From a virus (lineage: Duplodnaviria; Caudoviricetes): a stretch of DNA of 55,989 nucleotides. The position numbers were made by a program, and so were the translations under genes. The notes under the pieces were generated by a model. It was not told the origin of the DNA. It made no database searches and saw only the letters and a list, made by a program, of their open reading frames with translations. Location of the stretch: the IMG/VR virus record IMGVR_UViG_3300045253_000047, positions 1-55,989 of that record; one strand, written 5' to 3'. Each line of letters opens with the position of its first letter. The stretch's first letter is position 1. This document shows positions 2,543-39,443 of this stretch, in pieces.

Positions 2543-2757
2543 AAACAGGCGACACTTTGACCGTCAAAAATACAGGCGTTGCGATAAAGGCGACCGATTA
2601 CGAGAAGCGGTTCAGGTACAACGATTGCGAAACGCGATGGCTGGGGATGGGCGACAAGGTGAAGTATGTCGGGGATGTGCCTGATCGGGAGGATGTGGTG
2701 ATCGTGTCCATCGGCGGCAAGGAGTTCGTGATGAATAGGGAGGCTTTTGGGAAATGA
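2539..2757 (+). CDS. hypothetical protein
   Basis: ATGA coupling at both ends. Confidence 0.7.
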   Translation: MKTGDTLTVKNTGVAIKATDYEKRFRYNDCETRWLGMGDKVKYVGDVPDREDVVIVSIGGKEFVMNREAFGK

Positions 2758-3242
2758 AAATTAAGATTGACGTACCGGATAGGCTTATCGAAGTGGCCGC
2801 TCGAAGATTGGCCGCGAAATATAACACGGATTATATCGCAACTATGGATATGAGCGGTGTTATCAACAATGACCAAATGCAGGAGTGCATCGAAGCGGTT
2901 CTCCCCGGCTATATCGAATTCGAGGCTGACAGCTTGATAGAATGTCTCGTTAATGACACAAGCAAAGAAGGCATCCAAACCATGGACGGGTTCGTGCGAT
3001 CGAAAGCTAAGTTGTGCTGGAATGTATACGGCTATGACGCGGCTACGACGCCTTGCGGGTTTGTTTTTTTCGTTGTGATAGAACCCTCGAATATACCTGC
3101 GTCTATAGACAACACGGAGTACAGCACGAAGGAACTTGCCCTCGCGCGTGCTGCCGAGTTGAACATCGCCTTCGACAAGGAGTACGGCCCGTTCGCGACA
3201 TATGCGGACGCTGTGAAAAAGGCTGAGGAGGTCAACCAATGA
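2754..3242 (+). CDS. hypothetical protein
   Basis: ATGA coupling. Confidence 0.7.
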   Translation: MKIKIDVPDRLIEVAARRLAAKYNTDYIATMDMSGVINNDQMQECIEAVLPGYIEFEADSLIECLVNDTSKEGIQTMDGFVRSKAKLCWNVYGYDAATTPCGFVFFVVIEPSNIPASIDNTEYSTKELALARAAELNIAFDKEYGPFATYADAVKKAEEVNQ

Positions 3243-3420: not shown

Positions 3421-4362
3421 TTACTCTTCTTCCTCATCATCGTTATCTTCATTTATAACAACCTGAGCGTCGTTATGGGAACCTTCGGTATGACTGTATA
3501 CATGTGTCACAATCCAATTTTTAGGTATATGAGTTTTGTAAATATCACTCCAATATTTAACCGTCTGGAGGTCAACATCTAATACGTCGCCTTTACCAAA
3601 CCGTTCTTTACCGCTTTCAACTTTAGCCAAGAAGTCGTCGTCTGTAATTTCAACACCAATATGACTCGCTAGAGGATGCAACATTCTCCATTTAGTCCCT
3701 CTAACAAATGATGGCTTAGTGATTACTAGCCGTGTACGATCAGAAGTGACTATTCGTTTAGGCAATTCCAATGATTGTGAAGAGCCAATCATAATTTCCT
3801 GCAATTCGCCTTTATCAGCATGAAAAATCTCATTATCCTGGCGATCACGCAAACTCAAATAATCTACAGTATCATCATTGGCTACAGTGTCCAGTAAATT
3901 GTTAATTGAGTTTGCAACATCCGGTTTTTCGTTGTATATACGCCAGACTTCGGGGGCGACTTCAATATTGTTGTTTTGTACGTTGATAATGACAATGTTG
4001 TTCGTGATAGTTGAAGATTGCGGTTTTTCTTTTTTAAGTGCCTTCGCAAGGTCCATTGAACCTCTCAATACGGCAATTACTGCGGCCACATCCTTGGCGG
4101 CTTCGAAGGTTAATAGATTCTTTAACTGATGAACCACGTCCATCATCAAATGCAAGTCTACAACAAAACTACCCGCTTTAGTTGCTTTGATTCGTATTCG
4201 TAATTCTGCGCCAGTATCCATACCTGCGTTGATCTCATTTAACGCAGTTGATAGAGATAGGAGAGACGATACGAAAGTTTGGGCACTGATATCGTTGGTA
4301 CCCGTACCAAATACAACCTTGAAGTCACCTTCACTATTGGTAACGAGAGGTAAACCAGCCAT
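3421..4362 (-). CDS. cargo protein, N-terminal alpha/beta domain + probable C-terminal OB-fold (defence candidate)
   Basis: 313 aa; KAGSF motif; C-terminal FGKGDVLDVDL; acidic tail. Confidence 0.75.
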   Translation of the reverse strand: MAGLPLVTNSEGDFKVVFGTGTNDISAQTFVSSLLSLSTALNEINAGMDTGAELRIRIKATKAGSFVVDLHLMMDVVHQLKNLLTFEAAKDVAAVIAVLRGSMDLAKALKKEKPQSSTITNNIVIINVQNNNIEVAPEVWRIYNEKPDVANSINNLLDTVANDDTVDYLSLRDRQDNEIFHADKGELQEIMIGSSQSLELPKRIVTSDRTRLVITKPSFVRGTKWRMLHPLASHIGVEITDDDFLAKVESGKERFGKGDVLDVDLQTVKYWSDIYKTHIPKNWIVTHVYSHTEGSHNDAQVVINEDNDDEEEE

Positions 4363-4442: not shown

Positions 4443-4646
4443 TCATCTAGGCTTGCGTCCAGGCTTTTGTTTCGGGGTACCATCGACTCTTAGTTTCGCG
4501 CCTTCTTGGGATAGCCGCGCGTCGAGATCGGCTTTAGGAACTGCAAAGAGTTTCCTGCCTAACTCAGCGAAACGGTCAAAGTCAGGGCTAATACCTGGCG
4601 GCGGAATAGTAACCGGATTCGGTTGCGGAGCTTGATGATTATTCAT
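4443..4646 (-). CDS. IS1595-associated 'VPK' microprotein
   Basis: FAELGRKLFAVPKADLDAR...KPGRKPR; similar to 10461..10667; start MNNHQ 7 nt after TACAAT. Confidence 0.75.
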   Translation of the reverse strand: MNNHQAPQPNPVTIPPPGISPDFDRFAELGRKLFAVPKADLDARLSQEGAKLRVDGTPKQKPGRKPR

Positions 4647-4743: not shown

Positions 4744-4772
4744 TTGACAAAAAGGAATGTATGTTCTATAAT
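4744..4772 (+). promoter_or_regulatory. consensus sigma70 promoter upstream of the cargo triad
   Basis: TTGACA-17-TATAAT. Confidence 0.7.
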
Positions 4773-5072: not shown

Positions 5073-5435
5073 TTGGCCGATCAATTGCGATGGAGTAGTC
5101 AACGCGAGCTTTACATTCATTATGAGCGCCATGGTGGGGCTTTCGGCGCAACGTCCGCGAATGATTACGAAGCACTTGCGATTAAGTTTTTGACATCAAC
5201 TCCAAGTTGTTTGCCTGTCAAATGTAACGCTTGCCCCGGATGTAGTTGTCAAGCGTATAATACATTACACGAGTGTATCAGGAAAGGTGGGGCGGTTTTA
5301 CGATATGACACAGTTTCGACTTACCTTGGCATATTTCAACCTGGTATATGTATAGTTACATATTACAAAGCCGATGAATCGTTCTTCAGGGGTCATACCC
5401 CAATATCGTATTTTCACAATGAATGCCTAAAATAA
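5073..5435 (+). CDS. putative colicin D/CdiA-CT-like (BECR-fold) RNase toxin
   Basis: HYERHGGAFG..Y...A..F / R.GG...RYD....GI..IVTYYK pattern. Confidence 0.6.
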   Translation: MADQLRWSSQRELYIHYERHGGAFGATSANDYEALAIKFLTSTPSCLPVKCNACPGCSCQAYNTLHECIRKGGAVLRYDTVSTYLGIFQPGICIVTYYKADESFFRGHTPISYFHNECLK

Positions 5436-5812
5436 TGAACACTTACAATTGCCCTGTTTGCGGATATAATGACCTGTGGCGTCCAGCAACCGAAAACATG
5501 ATATGTCCTTGCTGTGCAACGCATTTTGGATTAGATGATGCCTACTATACGGTTGACGAATTAAGAACTAGATGGATAAGCAATGGTGCCATATGGTTCA
5601 GTAAATACACGGTTGCGCCTCCGTATTGGTCGGCAATTAGCCAATTGAGAGCTAATGGGTACGATTGTACAGACAGTGATTTGATCGCGATAATGAAGGA
5701 TAATTACAAAAACAACTCGGCGGTGCTGTTTATGCCCATACGTAACGAGAGGCCAGTTGCAACTAACTCGAAATTTGAGTCGAAAACTATTTCGTATGCC
5801 TTAGCAGTCTAA
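5435..5812 (+). CDS. CPCC cysteine-rich protein, putative antitoxin
   Basis: CPVCG...ICPCC; TAATG coupling to upstream ORF; tail ends YALAV. Confidence 0.65.
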   Translation: MNTYNCPVCGYNDLWRPATENMICPCCATHFGLDDAYYTVDELRTRWISNGAIWFSKYTVAPPYWSAISQLRANGYDCTDSDLIAIMKDNYKNNSAVLFMPIRNERPVATNSKFESKTISYALAV

Positions 5813-5814
5813 CT

Positions 5815-6291
5815 ATGCCAAAACTTGTGCTATTTGCAGCTTGCCGTAACGCCGTAATCGATCAAGAAGATAATACGGTAACGCTTGTATGTATTCTTAA
5901 TGGATTAACCGTTCCGGGCGGCATACCGGATGGTCGTTCCACCGCTATCGATTGGGGGGCGGTTTCAGTATGGGCACCTGATCCCTCAGATTTAAACGAT
6001 GAAATTTTTGAACTTCGAGTGCAGGTAAGACTACCAGACGATTCGCTGCATGGTGAAGCCATAGCGCCTTTTACTATGACGCAAGATCGATTTCAATCGG
6101 TCATAAAAGGCGCACGATTACCACTTTGGCAATCTGGTGACATTAATTTTGTACTTTGCATGAGATCAATTACCAGGGAAACGGACTGGAAGCAATACGG
6201 AGAATTTCCCACAATCGTTACTCACGGGCCTCCAAGGCAAACTCATGAGGATACAAACGAGGAGACTGAAAACAGCGACCCTTCAATATAA
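5815..6291 (+). CDS. beta-rich DUF6941-like protein, putative chaperone/third component
   Basis: FAACRNAVID..NTVTLV.I N-terminus recalled from DUF6941-type proteins; starts 2 nt after upstream stop. Confidence 0.55.
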   Translation: MPKLVLFAACRNAVIDQEDNTVTLVCILNGLTVPGGIPDGRSTAIDWGAVSVWAPDPSDLNDEIFELRVQVRLPDDSLHGEAIAPFTMTQDRFQSVIKGARLPLWQSGDINFVLCMRSITRETDWKQYGEFPTIVTHGPPRQTHEDTNEETENSDPSI

Positions 6292-6328
6292 CAAAGAGCT
6301 TTCCCGGATAAGTGGGAAAGCTCTTTGT
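6292..6328. terminator. bidirectional terminator between convergent genes
   Basis: CAAAGAGCTTTCCC...GGGAAAGCTCTTTG. Confidence 0.8.
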
Positions 6329-6346: not shown

Positions 6347-7321
6347 CTAGCGATACTGGAACATCCAACCGTAAAAATCTTGTGAGCTTTCGGTGAGGCG
6401 AATCCAAGTTAACCGCTTTCCAGACACTTGGCTTAGAACTTTCAGGAAACGCCCTGCATCGTTTGTTCCGCGCTCGTTAAACCGATAAGCTTGTTCGTCT
6501 ACGTACCGATCAAGGTGAAACGGCATCACTGCAACGTAAGTACCTTTAATCCCGCGTTTTAACAAGCTCCAGAAGTTTTCCATACCATTCGTATGAACTA
6601 CGCCGTTCGCGTACGTTACGGTATGGTCAATAAAATCGTGAACGAACTCTTGGCCTAAGCCGTTGTATCCCTTGTGAGCGTCTGTGTAGACGTAGGAACC
6701 GGTTACAACGTAGTTCTTGACGTTATCCTGCAAAGTCTCCGCGTCCGTGCCTTTTACGACCTTGGCCGCAACGCGGGATTTGCGACCAGTTTGGCCGCGC
6801 TCGATAACACCTTGAACGATGGCTTTACCAACTGCCCCGCGCCCTTGTCGTAACTTCTTGTTCTCGTGCTTGTTCTTCTCTAATCCGCCGACGAATGTTT
6901 CGTCTGCTTCAATCGTGCCTTCCATTTTCTGGAATGAGCCATCTTTCATAGCTTCTCGGATACGGTGAAGCATGAACCAAGCCGTACGCTGGGTAACGCC
7001 AAGATCACGGCCTAGCTCGTAAGAGGATATACCGTTCTTGCAATTGGCGATGAACCATATCGCGGCAAGCCATTGATCGAGACCGAGCGGGGAGTCCTCG
7101 AATATGGTTCCGTTCTTTACCGTGAAGTCCTTGCGGCAGTCACGGCAACGATACCGGAAATACGCTGGCATGAAGTGAGCGTTTTTCGACCCGCAGCGAT
7201 GGCAAACCGGTTCACCGTCAGGCCATACGAACATAGCGGCAATGGTATGCGCGTATGCCTTATCCGAGAACATCACTATCGCTTCTTTAAGCGTCTGGGG
7301 TATAGTCAATTCGTTTTCCAT
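6347..7321 (-). CDS. IS1595-family DDE transposase
   Basis: Zn ribbon (CHRC..CRDC), HTH, EADET, YTDAHKGY, HTNGMENFWS, YRFN. Confidence 0.96.
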   Translation of the reverse strand: MENELTIPQTLKEAIVMFSDKAYAHTIAAMFVWPDGEPVCHRCGSKNAHFMPAYFRYRCRDCRKDFTVKNGTIFEDSPLGLDQWLAAIWFIANCKNGISSYELGRDLGVTQRTAWFMLHRIREAMKDGSFQKMEGTIEADETFVGGLEKNKHENKKLRQGRGAVGKAIVQGVIERGQTGRKSRVAAKVVKGTDAETLQDNVKNYVVTGSYVYTDAHKGYNGLGQEFVHDFIDHTVTYANGVVHTNGMENFWSLLKRGIKGTYVAVMPFHLDRYVDEQAYRFNERGTNDAGRFLKVLSQVSGKRLTWIRLTESSQDFYGWMFQYR

Positions 7322-8215: not shown

Positions 8216-9181
8216 ATGGAAAGAGAAGTTAAAATACCACAGACCTTGCAGGAAGCGATTACGCTTTATTCAAACCTTGACAACTGCCTTGATATCCTGG
8301 TTGCTATGCGCTGGGGTGCCGATGACGTGAGTTGCCCGTATTGCGGCGCGACGCCGTGTACCTTCATGGAGAAGGCACAGCGATGGGCCTGTAAGGGTTG
8401 TCGGAAGCAGTTTTCAATCAAAGTCGGAACATACATGGAGGATTCTCCCATGGGTTTGGATAAATGGTTGACAGCTATGTGGTTAATCGGGAACGCGAAG
8501 AACGGAATCTCTTCTTGCGAGATTTCCCGAGCAATCGGGATTACCCAAAAGAGCGCGTGGTTTATGCTTCATCGTATTCGCCTCTCGTTCGGCGAAGGAA
8601 TGCCGTCTGATATGGACGGAACCGTAGAAGCCGACGAAACATACATGGGCGGACTTGAGAAGAATAAGCACAAGAGCAAGCGAACCGAAGGCTCTCAGGG
8701 GCGAAGCGCGAAGAGTAAGGCCGTTGTTATGGGACTACTACAGCGGGGCAATGAAAAGACCGCGAGCCAAGTCAACGCCTCTGTTATTGCAGACGCGGGC
8801 GCGAAGGAACTCAAGGGCCGTATTAACAAGCATGTGAAGCCAGGGGCCGAAGTCTTTACCGATAATTGGGCAGGATACAAGGGTTTGGATAAAACCCATA
8901 TCCACGCGTTTGTAGATCATGCGGTAGAATACGTTAATGGCCGGGTGCATACGAACGGGATGGAAAATTTCTGGTCTTTGCTAAAGCGGATGGTGAAGGG
9001 AACTTACGTGCAGGTTTCGCCGTGGCATCTACAGCGGTATGTCGAAGAAGAGGGGTTCCGCTTTAACGAGCGGAAAGAAGACGATGCGTCCCGGTTCATA
9101 AAGACCATTGGGAGTATTCAGGGTAAGCGGCTTACCTACAAGCAGCTTACCTTCCCCTCGTGGGCGTTCAAAGAGGCTTAA
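8216..9181 (+). CDS. IS1595-family DDE transposase
   Basis: CPYC..CKGC, EADET, FTDNWAGY, HTNGMENFWS, FRFN, GKRLTYKQL. Confidence 0.96.
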   Translation: MEREVKIPQTLQEAITLYSNLDNCLDILVAMRWGADDVSCPYCGATPCTFMEKAQRWACKGCRKQFSIKVGTYMEDSPMGLDKWLTAMWLIGNAKNGISSCEISRAIGITQKSAWFMLHRIRLSFGEGMPSDMDGTVEADETYMGGLEKNKHKSKRTEGSQGRSAKSKAVVMGLLQRGNEKTASQVNASVIADAGAKELKGRINKHVKPGAEVFTDNWAGYKGLDKTHIHAFVDHAVEYVNGRVHTNGMENFWSLLKRMVKGTYVQVSPWHLQRYVEEEGFRFNERKEDDASRFIKTIGSIQGKRLTYKQLTFPSWAFKEA

Positions 9182-9192
9182 AGCCAAAGATC

Positions 9193-9993
9193 ATGAGCGA
9201 CAGACTGACAATTCGAGTGGCGGGGAAGAATGAGCATATTGCTGTTTCATCCTTCCTCGACATTATGCAAAATACATTGGTTGTCTTGGAAGGGATAACT
9301 AAGAGTTTGCGCACGTCTGATACAAACGCGGTTGAATGGCGCATTGTGTCAGCCAGCATGAATAGTCCGTTAGCGGTCACAATAGAAGGGCATGTTGACG
9401 GCAATCCTTCCCCCGTTCCTGAAAACGTTGTACATGCTTGCATGAGAGGCTTTAAGCAGATAGAGGAGTCCGATGAAAGTACACCTCAGTATTTTAATGT
9501 TTCAATGCTTGATGCCGTAAAAAAAATAGGCTACGTGTTATTAAATGATGGGGTAAGAGCTGTCACGTTTGTTCCCGATGATATGAATCCCGTGACCCCT
9601 ACGCCCCAGTTCTATGCTCATGTAATGCAATTGATACCCCAGGGTTACTCCGAAATTGGATCACTTGAAGGCCGTCTTGAAGTCCTATCCATTCACAGGA
9701 AGAATTATTTTGCCGTTTATGATCGGTTTACGGGCAAGCGCGTAGAATGCACATTTGAGAATGCAGACCTGCAAAAAGCCAAAGAAGCTTTTGGGCGTCG
9801 TGTGAATATCTATGGCCGAATTAGATATAACCGAGAATCCCAGCCCGAGTCAGTATCCGTAGAACCGAATGGAATCGAAGTTATTCCAGAACAGCACGAG
9901 TTACCGCAATTTGCAGATTTAGAAGGGCTAGATATCACCGGTGGCGTAGACCCCGCCGAATACGTAAGGAGTTTACGGGATGACGCTAGGTGA
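9193..9993 (+). CDS. cargo protein with probable C-terminal OB-fold; partner of the PIN gene
   Basis: Likely start MSDRL; GSLEGRL...VECTF...AFGRRVNIYGRI. Confidence 0.75.
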   Translation: MSDRLTIRVAGKNEHIAVSSFLDIMQNTLVVLEGITKSLRTSDTNAVEWRIVSASMNSPLAVTIEGHVDGNPSPVPENVVHACMRGFKQIEESDESTPQYFNVSMLDAVKKIGYVLLNDGVRAVTFVPDDMNPVTPTPQFYAHVMQLIPQGYSEIGSLEGRLEVLSIHRKNYFAVYDRFTGKRVECTFENADLQKAKEAFGRRVNIYGRIRYNRESQPESVSVEPNGIEVIPEQHELPQFADLEGLDITGGVDPAEYVRSLRDDAR

Positions 9994-10459
9994 CAAAGTG
10001 TATTGGGACAGTTGTGTATTTATCCATAGGATACAGAAAACAACCGATCATTACGCCATTCTTAAGAGTATTACCGATGATGCAGAAGCTGGACGCATCA
10101 CGATTGTTACCTCTACGCTTACATTGGCCGAAGTGGTCAAATGTGATACAACCTTACAACCAACTGAACAAGAACGCCTTGTATCTGAGTTCTTTAAAAA
10201 CCCATATTTGGATATAAGGCAAGTTGACCGCAAGGTAGCAGAACTCGCAAGGACTATAGTCCGAAATAATCGGCTAAAGCCGCCAGACGCTATTCATATT
10301 GCAACGGCGGCACTTATGAATACCGCTGAGTTCAATACCTATGAGGATAAGATGTTGGGTTGCAATGGGAATATTTCGGTGTTATCGGCCCCCATCATTA
10401 AACCTTGTTGGCGAGATGGTCAAGGGGATATGTTCGCGGCGGCTTCGGTAGGAGTATGA
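9980..10459 (+). CDS. PIN-domain (VapC-like) ribonuclease
   Basis: VYWDSCVFI, TSTLTLAEV, LKPPDAIHIATA, TYED. Confidence 0.9.
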   Translation: MTLGDKVYWDSCVFIHRIQKTTDHYAILKSITDDAEAGRITIVTSTLTLAEVVKCDTTLQPTEQERLVSEFFKNPYLDIRQVDRKVAELARTIVRNNRLKPPDAIHIATAALMNTAEFNTYEDKMLGCNGNISVLSAPIIKPCWRDGQGDMFAAASVGV

Positions 10460-39367: not shown

Positions 39368-39443
39368 TGGTCAGGGGTGACGGGTTTGAACCACCACCAA
39401 GAGGCGTACACCTCTCTGCTCTCCCAGTTTGAGCTAACCCCCG
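39368..39443 (-). tRNA. tRNA-like gene with non-canonical anticodon arm
   Basis: CGGGGGT/ACCCCTG-A-CCA acceptor, GCTC/GAGC D-arm, GGTTCAAACC T-loop; anticodon arm GAGAGG-TGTACG-CCTCTT. Confidence 0.8.

Follow-up and report, generated by a model that had tools for sequence, protein, structure and literature searches.

Analysis of the IMG/VR virus record IMGVR_UViG_3300045253_000047, a linear contig of 55,989 bases with a completeness estimate of 52% (hereafter the window, meaning the whole of this stretch), revealed a small cassette of about 1.2 kb in which a toxin-immunity pair of the polymorphic-toxin type is followed by a third gene related to the DUF6941 family. Gene 1 encodes a predicted ribonuclease (RNase) toxin, gene 2 a zinc-ribbon protein that is probably its immunity partner, and gene 3 a predicted beta-sandwich protein. 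Across metagenome loci, the presence of gene 3 went together with a long C-terminal tail on the gene 2 product, ending mostly in Ala or Val. An initial annotation of the window, made from the sequence alone, had proposed these genes as a candidate toxin-antitoxin-chaperone triad with an ssrA-like degron. The best explanation that we can offer for the data, held tentatively and at rather less than even confidence, is that the gene 3 product binds and shields the tail of gene 2, the cassette working as a labile toxin-antitoxin switch.

An exhaustive HMMER search with gene 1 retrieved 73 homologues at E<=1e-3 (best E 6.3e-23, 41% identity). Some of these proteins stand alone, with ~100-130 residues, and others form the C-terminal ends of longer proteins. 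Delivery domains reached Pfam cut-offs in 4 of the 30 homologues scanned (RHS repeat, PAAR, Fil_haemagg_2, and PT-VENN), and DUF637 fell just under the cut-off in two further ones; Rhs-type open frames were seen at three loci (L015-L017). The occurrence of the same domain behind delivery domains and in stand-alone copies is the signature of a polymorphic-toxin tip. In an alignment of 27 sequences, residues H16, H20, A36, F39, and C118 were invariant. The gene 1 profile matched chain A of PDB entry 8EY4 (8ey4_A; E 2.1e-11, 47.5 bits), and the AlphaFold model of the protein, with a predicted local distance difference test (pLDDT) value of 93.8, could be superimposed on the same chain with Z 11.3 (86 of 88 residues aligned, root-mean-square deviation 2.4). 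The next fold matches were the colicin D tRNase domain (Z 7.9 and 6.9), followed by RelE/BrnT-type toxins. In Foldseek, the top six rows corresponded to 8ey4 and colicin D entries, the latter at ranks 2-6 (TMt 0.53-0.56), and the Atlas feature search pointed to Colicin_D (0.87). Altogether, the homologues and the structural model indicate that gene 1 encodes an RNase domain of the polymorphic-toxin type as a separate protein. The protein would most likely act as a nuclease of tRNA or of another RNA of the translation machinery, through the helix carrying the invariant His16 and His20.

The initial annotation had described gene 1 as a stand-alone, polymorphic-toxin-like RNase with an extra Cys-rich loop, a description upheld by the homologues, by the profile match to 8ey4_A, and by the fold match. 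The loop, CLPVKCNACPGCSC, corresponds to residues 46-59 of the protein and is an insertion common only to the six closest relatives (P0003-P0007 and P0011). In this closest-relative set, residues C51, C54, C59, H66, C68, H115, and C118 are invariant, which suggests the existence of an extra metal site in the loop-bearing proteins. No match to the Pfam Colicin_D model was obtained in the window at E<=10, and gene 1 matched no Pfam family at E<=1 and nothing in PADLOC, NCBIfam, or PHROGs. The gene is uncalled in the big protein collection, where it found no match to itself, and gene 2 is entered there from an internal Met (104 aa), so that its first CxxC pair is cut off. Since homologues match the longer versions, the full-length forms of both genes were considered real.

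Two further observations were made on relatives of the toxin. A metagenome protein of 199 aa (P0068) carries the toxin domain, at residues 8-82, fused to an ORF6N domain (E 7.5e-16). In locus L003, from an Acidobacteria metagenome-assembled genome, a VapC (PIN)-like plus VapB-like pair recognised by eye is located at positions 2552-3129 on the minus strand, ~0.9 kb upstream of the toxin pair, which suggests that the surroundings of this locus are a toxin-antitoxin island.

The gene 2 product contains a CPVC motif at residues 10-13 and a CPCC motif at residues 28-31. Comparison of 36 sequences revealed invariant residues at C10, C13, C28, C31, W51, G55, and W58, within a conserved core formed by the two CxxC pairs, TEFG, ELR..W...G..W, and P..W...QL. 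Relatives of gene 2 are found directly 3' of the toxin gene in three Acidobacteriota loci (L003, L008, and L009), and they directly follow it in 53 of the 58 unique metagenome loci whose upstream sequence reached 300 nt or more. A member of the family is also placed directly after an Rhs protein whose tip is the toxin domain (L015), another Rhs locus (L017) bears a CPCC-motif zinc-ribbon immunity gene recognised by eye, and toxin and immunity domains occur in a single frame in the unpublished genome G001 (P0026, locus L002). PDB 8EY4 is a contact-dependent growth inhibition toxin-immunity complex from E. coli O32:H37, and its partner chain is named Cys_rich_CPCC protein. The gene 2 profile matched this chain weakly and over the ribbon region only (8ey4_I, E 0.49), with a similarly weak match to 8ey3_A (E 0.31). 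The Pfam Cys_rich_CPCC model (PF14206) stayed below its cut-off of 24.5, with 14.6 bits (E 0.03) over the N-terminal 25 residues only; PADLOC and NCBIfam gave weak, sub-threshold rows of zinc-ribbon type and PADLOC also a chance-level Cas10 row, and PHROGs gave none. As judged from these comparisons of sequence, gene 2 is the putative cognate immunity protein of the gene 1 toxin, with a CPCC-like zinc ribbon. It would block the toxin by direct binding, as suggested by the solved homologous pair and by the Rhs loci. The earlier description of gene 2 as a CPCC zinc protein with an extended tail ending in SYALAV was borne out in its motifs and in its C-terminus, and the protein could be placed as the zinc-ribbon partner of the toxin.

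The pair in the window resembles the CdiA-CT/CdiI pair of 8EY4 in its homologous toxin domain and in the small, Cys-rich, CPCC-type zinc-ribbon nature of the partner. On the other hand, the window toxin stands alone as a protein of 120 aa, has no delivery protein, and bears the Cys-rich insert; gene 2 is about twice as long as its counterpart, with a helical W..G..W module and a tail, and a third gene is present. We found no paper describing the activity of 8EY4, an entry mentioned in passing in PMC13068155. With regard to the colicin D tRNase domain and its immunity protein ImmD, the likeness lies in the fold class of gene 1, whereas the Pfam Colicin_D model is unmatched by gene 1 and gene 2 is unrelated to ImmD.

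The model of gene 3 is all-beta, with nine strands and no helices (pLDDT 80.2, falling below 50 at residues 144-154), in agreement with the beta protein of ~158 aa that had been anticipated. A profile built from 36 relatives of gene 3 aligned with canonical DUF6941 (hhalign 98.4%, E 5.9e-15, 136 columns). An invariant Cys near the N-terminus (C10 in gene 3, 36 sequences) is common to the gene 3 group and to canonical DUF6941, and a DUF6941 cluster was among the Atlas structural rows for gene 3 (TM 0.71-0.76). Relatives in loci L003, L021, and L022 pass the Pfam DUF6941 model (PF22091) with 27.9-34.1 bits for a cut-off of 27, whereas the window gene 3 does not match that model; it matched no Pfam family at E<=1 and nothing in PADLOC, NCBIfam, or PHROGs, and its profile gave nothing meaningful against PDB sequences. 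The fold matches of gene 3 in PDB were GH2 sandwich domains (Z ~10.9), adhesin repeats, and RhoGDI (Z 8.8), and its closest viral matches were uncharacterised phage proteins (best E 1.6e-6). SecB was not among the fold matches, an absence not decisive by itself. The all-beta model and the placement in the DUF6941 superfamily together indicate that gene 3 is not a SecB-like chaperone of the kind found in toxin-antitoxin-chaperone (TAC) systems but an immunoglobulin (Ig)-like sandwich of DUF6941 type.

A search of 401 sampled Acidobacteriota genomes showed canonical DUF6941 in 84, mostly as a single copy, and the neighbourhoods of these genes provided no functional clue. The toxin profile matched 11 genomes of the same set and the gene 3 profile 5, of which 3 adjoin a toxin pair. 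On these distributions, gene 3 is a specialised offshoot of the broader family. Separately, two of the DUF6941 proteins that pass the Pfam cut-off (L021, positions 1408-2410; L022, positions 475-1375) are each paired with a convergent protein of ~120 aa. The two small proteins are alike, of the type MxxDSDIRSxxxRFLxGE..., and may represent a different conserved partner of DUF6941.

The three genes of the window are tightly packed (Table 1). The TAA stop codon of gene 1 (5433-5435) overlaps gene 2 by 13 nt if translation of the latter starts at ATG 5423, or by 1 nt, in the sequence TAATG, if it starts at ATG 5435, and 2 nt separate the stop codon of gene 2 from the ATG of gene 3. The same order and strand of genes 1, 2, and 3 was found in two Acidobacteriota genomes (L008 and L009), with no phage genes nearby. 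A scan of metagenomes with the gene 2 alignment yielded >566 relatives, and 80 loci were kept; once duplicates had been removed, the loci in which gene 2 was complete and was followed by at least 400 nt of sequence numbered 54 (evaluable loci). Gene 3 was located immediately downstream of gene 2 and on the same strand in 33 of these 54 unique loci, and the gaps between both genes ranged from -29 to +51 nt. With this number of gene 2 relatives, the system is abundant in soil and peat metagenomes. The coupling of the three genes, proposed earlier from the window alone, is in this way seen to hold for a unit conserved in other genomes and in metagenome loci. A tblastn comparison with 50,697 phage records produced no match for the product of gene 1, gene 2, or gene 3, single-protein scans of viral contigs found no relatives, and word-indexed protein searches returned the window's own proteins or nothing.

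Table 1. Features of the three-gene cassette and of its immediate surroundings in the window.
Feature	Position	Strand	Details
Gene 1, predicted stand-alone toxin, RNase domain of the colicin D / CdiA-CT(8EY4)-type BECR fold	5073..5435	+	TTG start, 120 aa
Gene 2, putative zinc-ribbon (CPVC...CPCC) immunity/antitoxin protein	5423..5812	+	129 aa; start may be ATG 5435
Variable C-terminal extension of gene 2, ending ..SYALAV	5660..5809	+	~residues 80-129
Gene 3, predicted divergent DUF6941-superfamily Ig-like beta-sandwich, disordered acidic C-terminus	5815..6291	+	158 aa
Sigma-70 consensus promoter TTGACA-17-TATAAT	4744..4772	+	12/12 positions; ~300 nt upstream of gene 1
Perfect 16-bp hairpin after gene 3	6291..6328	.	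-28.7 kcal/mol, z -6.4, 0/200 shuffles as good
Small protein with basic tail, divergent from the trio	4443..4646	-	family adjoins trios elsewhere, optional

Beyond the conserved core, gene 2 proteins could not be aligned (36 sequences). In the evaluable metagenome loci, the length of this region differed with the presence of the third gene: the number of residues after W..G..W had a median of 55 (range 40-94) in loci with gene 3, in comparison with 27 (range 9-82) in loci without it (Mann-Whitney p 2.4e-6). The last residue was Ala or Val in 26 of 33 proteins encoded next to gene 3 and in 5 of 21 encoded without it (Fisher p 1.6e-4). Among 36 trios, the tail-final residue was Ala in 25 (69%) and Val in 3, and the second-last residue was Ala in 15 (42%), in comparison with an Ala content of 8.4% in the remaining tail residues. 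A tail of this kind is lacking in the Rhs-linked immunity protein of L015. The long tail and its ssrA-like, non-polar end, originally noticed in the window copy, are therefore not peculiar to this phage, as they go with gene 3 across metagenome loci.

The ssrA tag ends in Ala-rich residues of the 'LAA' type that are read by ClpX. The tails of gene 2 proteins share with it a non-polar, Ala-rich C-terminus, and the window protein ends in ..YALAV; unlike the tag, the gene 2 tail is genetically encoded and not added by transfer-messenger RNA (tmRNA), and that of the window ends in Val. The added tail would work as a C-terminal recognition element. A possible amphipathic beta-strand in the last 10 residues of the tails was also considered, and it was rejected (mean z 0.19, p 0.30).

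The phylogeny of gene 2 cores (73 sequences, 69 columns) was poorly resolved. The distribution of gene 3 on this tree required 14 changes, at least four of them forced by supported branches, and in sister rows (L030/L039 and window/L103) the tail was shorter where gene 3 was missing. The tail traits ran in the same direction in both supported independent pairs. These data bear on the possibility that the cassette is just what is left of a polymorphic toxin locus, an ordinary toxin-immunity pair of two genes, with gene 3 as a hitch-hiker and the tail pattern as a product of shared ancestry. Such an origin would be in line with the presence of the pair without gene 3 in 21 of the 54 loci and with the location of canonical DUF6941 genes elsewhere in genomes, and the test on independent pairs, with two supported pairs, is underpowered to discard it. 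However, overlaps or tiny gaps link gene 2 to gene 3 in most trios, the changes of gene 3 state forced by supported branches are accompanied by changes in the tails, and the terminal Ala is retained in tails that are otherwise unalignable. For these reasons, we give little credence to a hitch-hiking gene 3.

According to the explanation that we favour, the window would contain an accessory cassette, carried by the phage, whose three genes are coupled in translation. In this three-gene form, the immunity protein would have gained a long, poorly conserved C-terminal extension with an Ala-rich, non-polar end. The gene 3 product would bind this extension and keep gene 2 from degradation or aggregation. 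The trigger of the switch could be either the titration of gene 3, for instance by a protein of a superinfecting phage, or the cessation of cassette expression. A host AAA+ protease would then remove gene 2, and the freed RNase would arrest the cell, resulting in abortive infection or in prophage addiction.

Several observations weigh against this explanation. The raw statistics on tails and gene 3 ignore relatedness, and only two independent pairs lie on supported branches (sign test p 0.5). A residue other than Ala or Val ends seven of the 33 tails encoded next to gene 3, and Ala or Val ends five of the 21 encoded without it; moreover, a clade formed by L069, L076, L081, and L087 has tails of 52-53 residues ending in KVS and no gene 3. 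The window copy is itself atypical, since its tail ends in Val and its gene 3 shows CRN in place of the CEK of the family. The gene 3 product is unlike any known chaperone, its PDB matches being generic Ig-like sandwiches. Canonical DUF6941 genes are common and are found in mixed housekeeping neighbourhoods and not adjoining toxin pairs, which points to another ancestral role for the family, and in L003 the canonical DUF6941 gene is convergent to the toxin pair and not co-transcribed with it.

The closest functional parallel of a shielded tail is found in TAC systems. In the M. tuberculosis system, as described in PMC8165232, the antitoxin HigA1 has a C-terminal chaperone-addiction (ChAD) extension to which the SecB-like chaperone binds and which also contains a degron for ClpX; the antitoxin is protected when the chaperone is bound. 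E. coli TACs defend against phage, with a chaperone that doubles as a sensor of a phage structural protein, according to a preprint (bioRxiv 10.1101/2024.02.24.581848). The trio resembles the TACs (HigBA-SecB(TA) of M. tuberculosis, and HigBAC and CmdTAC of E. coli) in having three coupled genes and an antitoxin C-terminal extension that is found with the third gene. By contrast, its parts are all unrelated to those of TACs, since they comprise a polymorphic-toxin RNase, a zinc-ribbon immunity protein, and an all-beta sandwich of DUF6941 type. The relationship is thus one of functional analogy and not of membership.

The association of gene 3 with the tail would also fit a function of opposite sign, with gene 3 as a proteolytic adaptor that binds the tail and delivers gene 2, or the toxin, to a protease, in this way setting its turnover. 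Tethering adaptors with tails of their own include SspB and SocA of Caulobacter, and the gene 3 product likewise has a disordered C-terminal tail, at the residues of lowest pLDDT. The C-terminal tails of gene 3 proteins showed no conserved motif across 36 trios, however, and a cassette that merely destabilised its own antitoxin would be costly unless regulated. An adaptor function for gene 3 was consequently regarded as rather improbable.

We also considered that gene 3 might act on the toxin or on the target of the toxin, be it as co-factor, activator, second inhibitor, or specificity subunit; in that case, the gene 2 tail would serve not as a degron but as the link to a complex of the three proteins. 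Gene order and coupling do not show which of the proteins gene 3 touches. Certain CdiA-CT RNases of this fold class depend on a partner protein of the cell, and the NC101 CdiA/CdiI/EF-Tu complex appeared among the fold matches of gene 1 (Z 5.0). On the contrary, toxin domains share one alignable core, free of additional elements, whether or not their loci contain gene 3, and it is the tail of gene 2 that varies with gene 3. A gene 3 directed at the toxin was regarded as unlikely.

The conservation of the very last residues of the tails points to the recognition of a free C-terminus, and this recognition could serve a purpose other than proteolysis. The Ala-rich end might be a sorting or recognition signal, for example for export or for loading into particles, with gene 3 as its receptor, an idea compatible with the existence of gene 3-like folds in the uncharacterised phage proteins mentioned above. 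Nevertheless, signal peptides or membrane segments were not seen in the three protein sequences, and the trios of L008 and L009 are located in bacterial chromosomes with no phage genes nearby. We attach very little weight to a sorting signal.

The shielding of the tail by gene 3, if correct, could be taken one step further. It is conceivable, although we hold it with considerable doubt, that this branch of DUF6941 constitutes a new class of tail-binding, 'anti-degron' chaperones that guard the Ala-ended extension and turn a stable immunity protein into a conditionally labile antitoxin. The cassette would then be a widespread TAC-like switch for abortive infection or addiction in soil bacteria and their phages, with the beta-sandwich as a sensor that phages can titrate. 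A literature search, which did not cover supplements, found no paper on DUF6941 or Cys_rich_CPCC and nothing relevant for PF14206 or for the CdiA of O32:H37, and a three-gene form that joins a DUF6941-type partner to an immunity protein with an Ala-ended tail appears to be undescribed. If the proposal is true, the toxin-antitoxin-chaperone logic would have arisen a second time from unrelated parts, and a first functional handle would become available on DUF6941, a family present in about one-fifth of the Acidobacteriota genomes sampled. It would also show that modules of inter-bacterial warfare, formed by a CdiA/Rhs toxin and its immunity protein, have been domesticated into intracellular switches carried by phages.

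Examination of the genomic context located the trio within the accessory end, which spans 1-12 kb of the contig. Genes for portal, terminase, capsid, S49 protease, and tail morphogenesis are found on the minus strand at ~13-38 kb, with replication genes beyond. Other genes in the accessory end correspond to a LAPAL/PDC-S42 protein, two IS1595-family transposases, and a PIN-domain protein. The G+C content is 0.40-0.45 across 3.2-6.6 kb, in comparison with 0.48-0.54 in the regions flanking it on either side, which matches the expectation for an acquired cassette.

A promoter and a terminator belonging to the cassette had also been proposed. The promoter element stood, since the sigma-70 sequence listed in Table 1 fits the consensus completely, although it is placed well upstream of gene 1; it would presumably drive the trio. 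A promoter scan of the window yielded 6 promoter-like sites, in comparison with 4.4 ± 2.4 in shuffled sequences. The terminator was sustained only in part: a stable hairpin follows gene 3, but it continues with GUGUCUC and lacks a U-run, and the consensus terminator scan listed none after gene 3. The same hairpin lies downstream of a convergent IS1595 transposase gene. The strong promoter of its own, the hairpin after the last gene, and the reduced G+C content make the cassette resemble a moron. The phage would likely benefit from it through abortive infection that excludes competitor phages or through stabilisation of the prophage.

The small gene divergent from the trio (Table 1) encodes a protein of ~67 aa if counted from an internal Met; it shows the motif F..F..L..KL..VPK..L, and its tail is rich in Lys and Arg. 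Relatives of this protein directly adjoin trios in L008, L036, L056, L057, L061, L084/L085, L089, and L090, and they also adjoin the toxin pair in L002 and the DUF6941 gene in L022. The protein may be an optional fourth component or a regulator of the cassette.

Other features of the window were recorded in the course of the analysis. A search of sequencing runs listed no RNA run with this stretch, which was contained only in its probable source sample. The Rfam scan of the window gave no match, and ARAGORN called a tRNA-like gene at 39368-39443 (minus strand) with a two-base anticodon, '(ta)', that left its identity undetermined, with no Rfam tRNA at gathering score. The product encoded at 3421-4362 (minus strand) was identified as a LAPAL-motif 'putative phage structural protein' (NCBIfam, E 2.1e-49), and it also matched the PADLOC defence candidate PDC-S42 (E 1.6e-31) and phrog_3243. 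Two IS1595-family transposase genes, at 6347-7321 (minus strand) and 8216-9181 (plus strand), face outward with ~0.9 kb between them, and a fragment of an IS1595 transposase is present immediately upstream of the toxin pair in the unpublished genome G001 (L002). Finally, the region 9160-10459 (plus strand) contains a 277-aa open reading frame that overlaps the start of the PIN-domain gene at 9980-10459 (Pfam E 1.6e-10), and both could form a further toxin-antitoxin-like pair in the accessory region.

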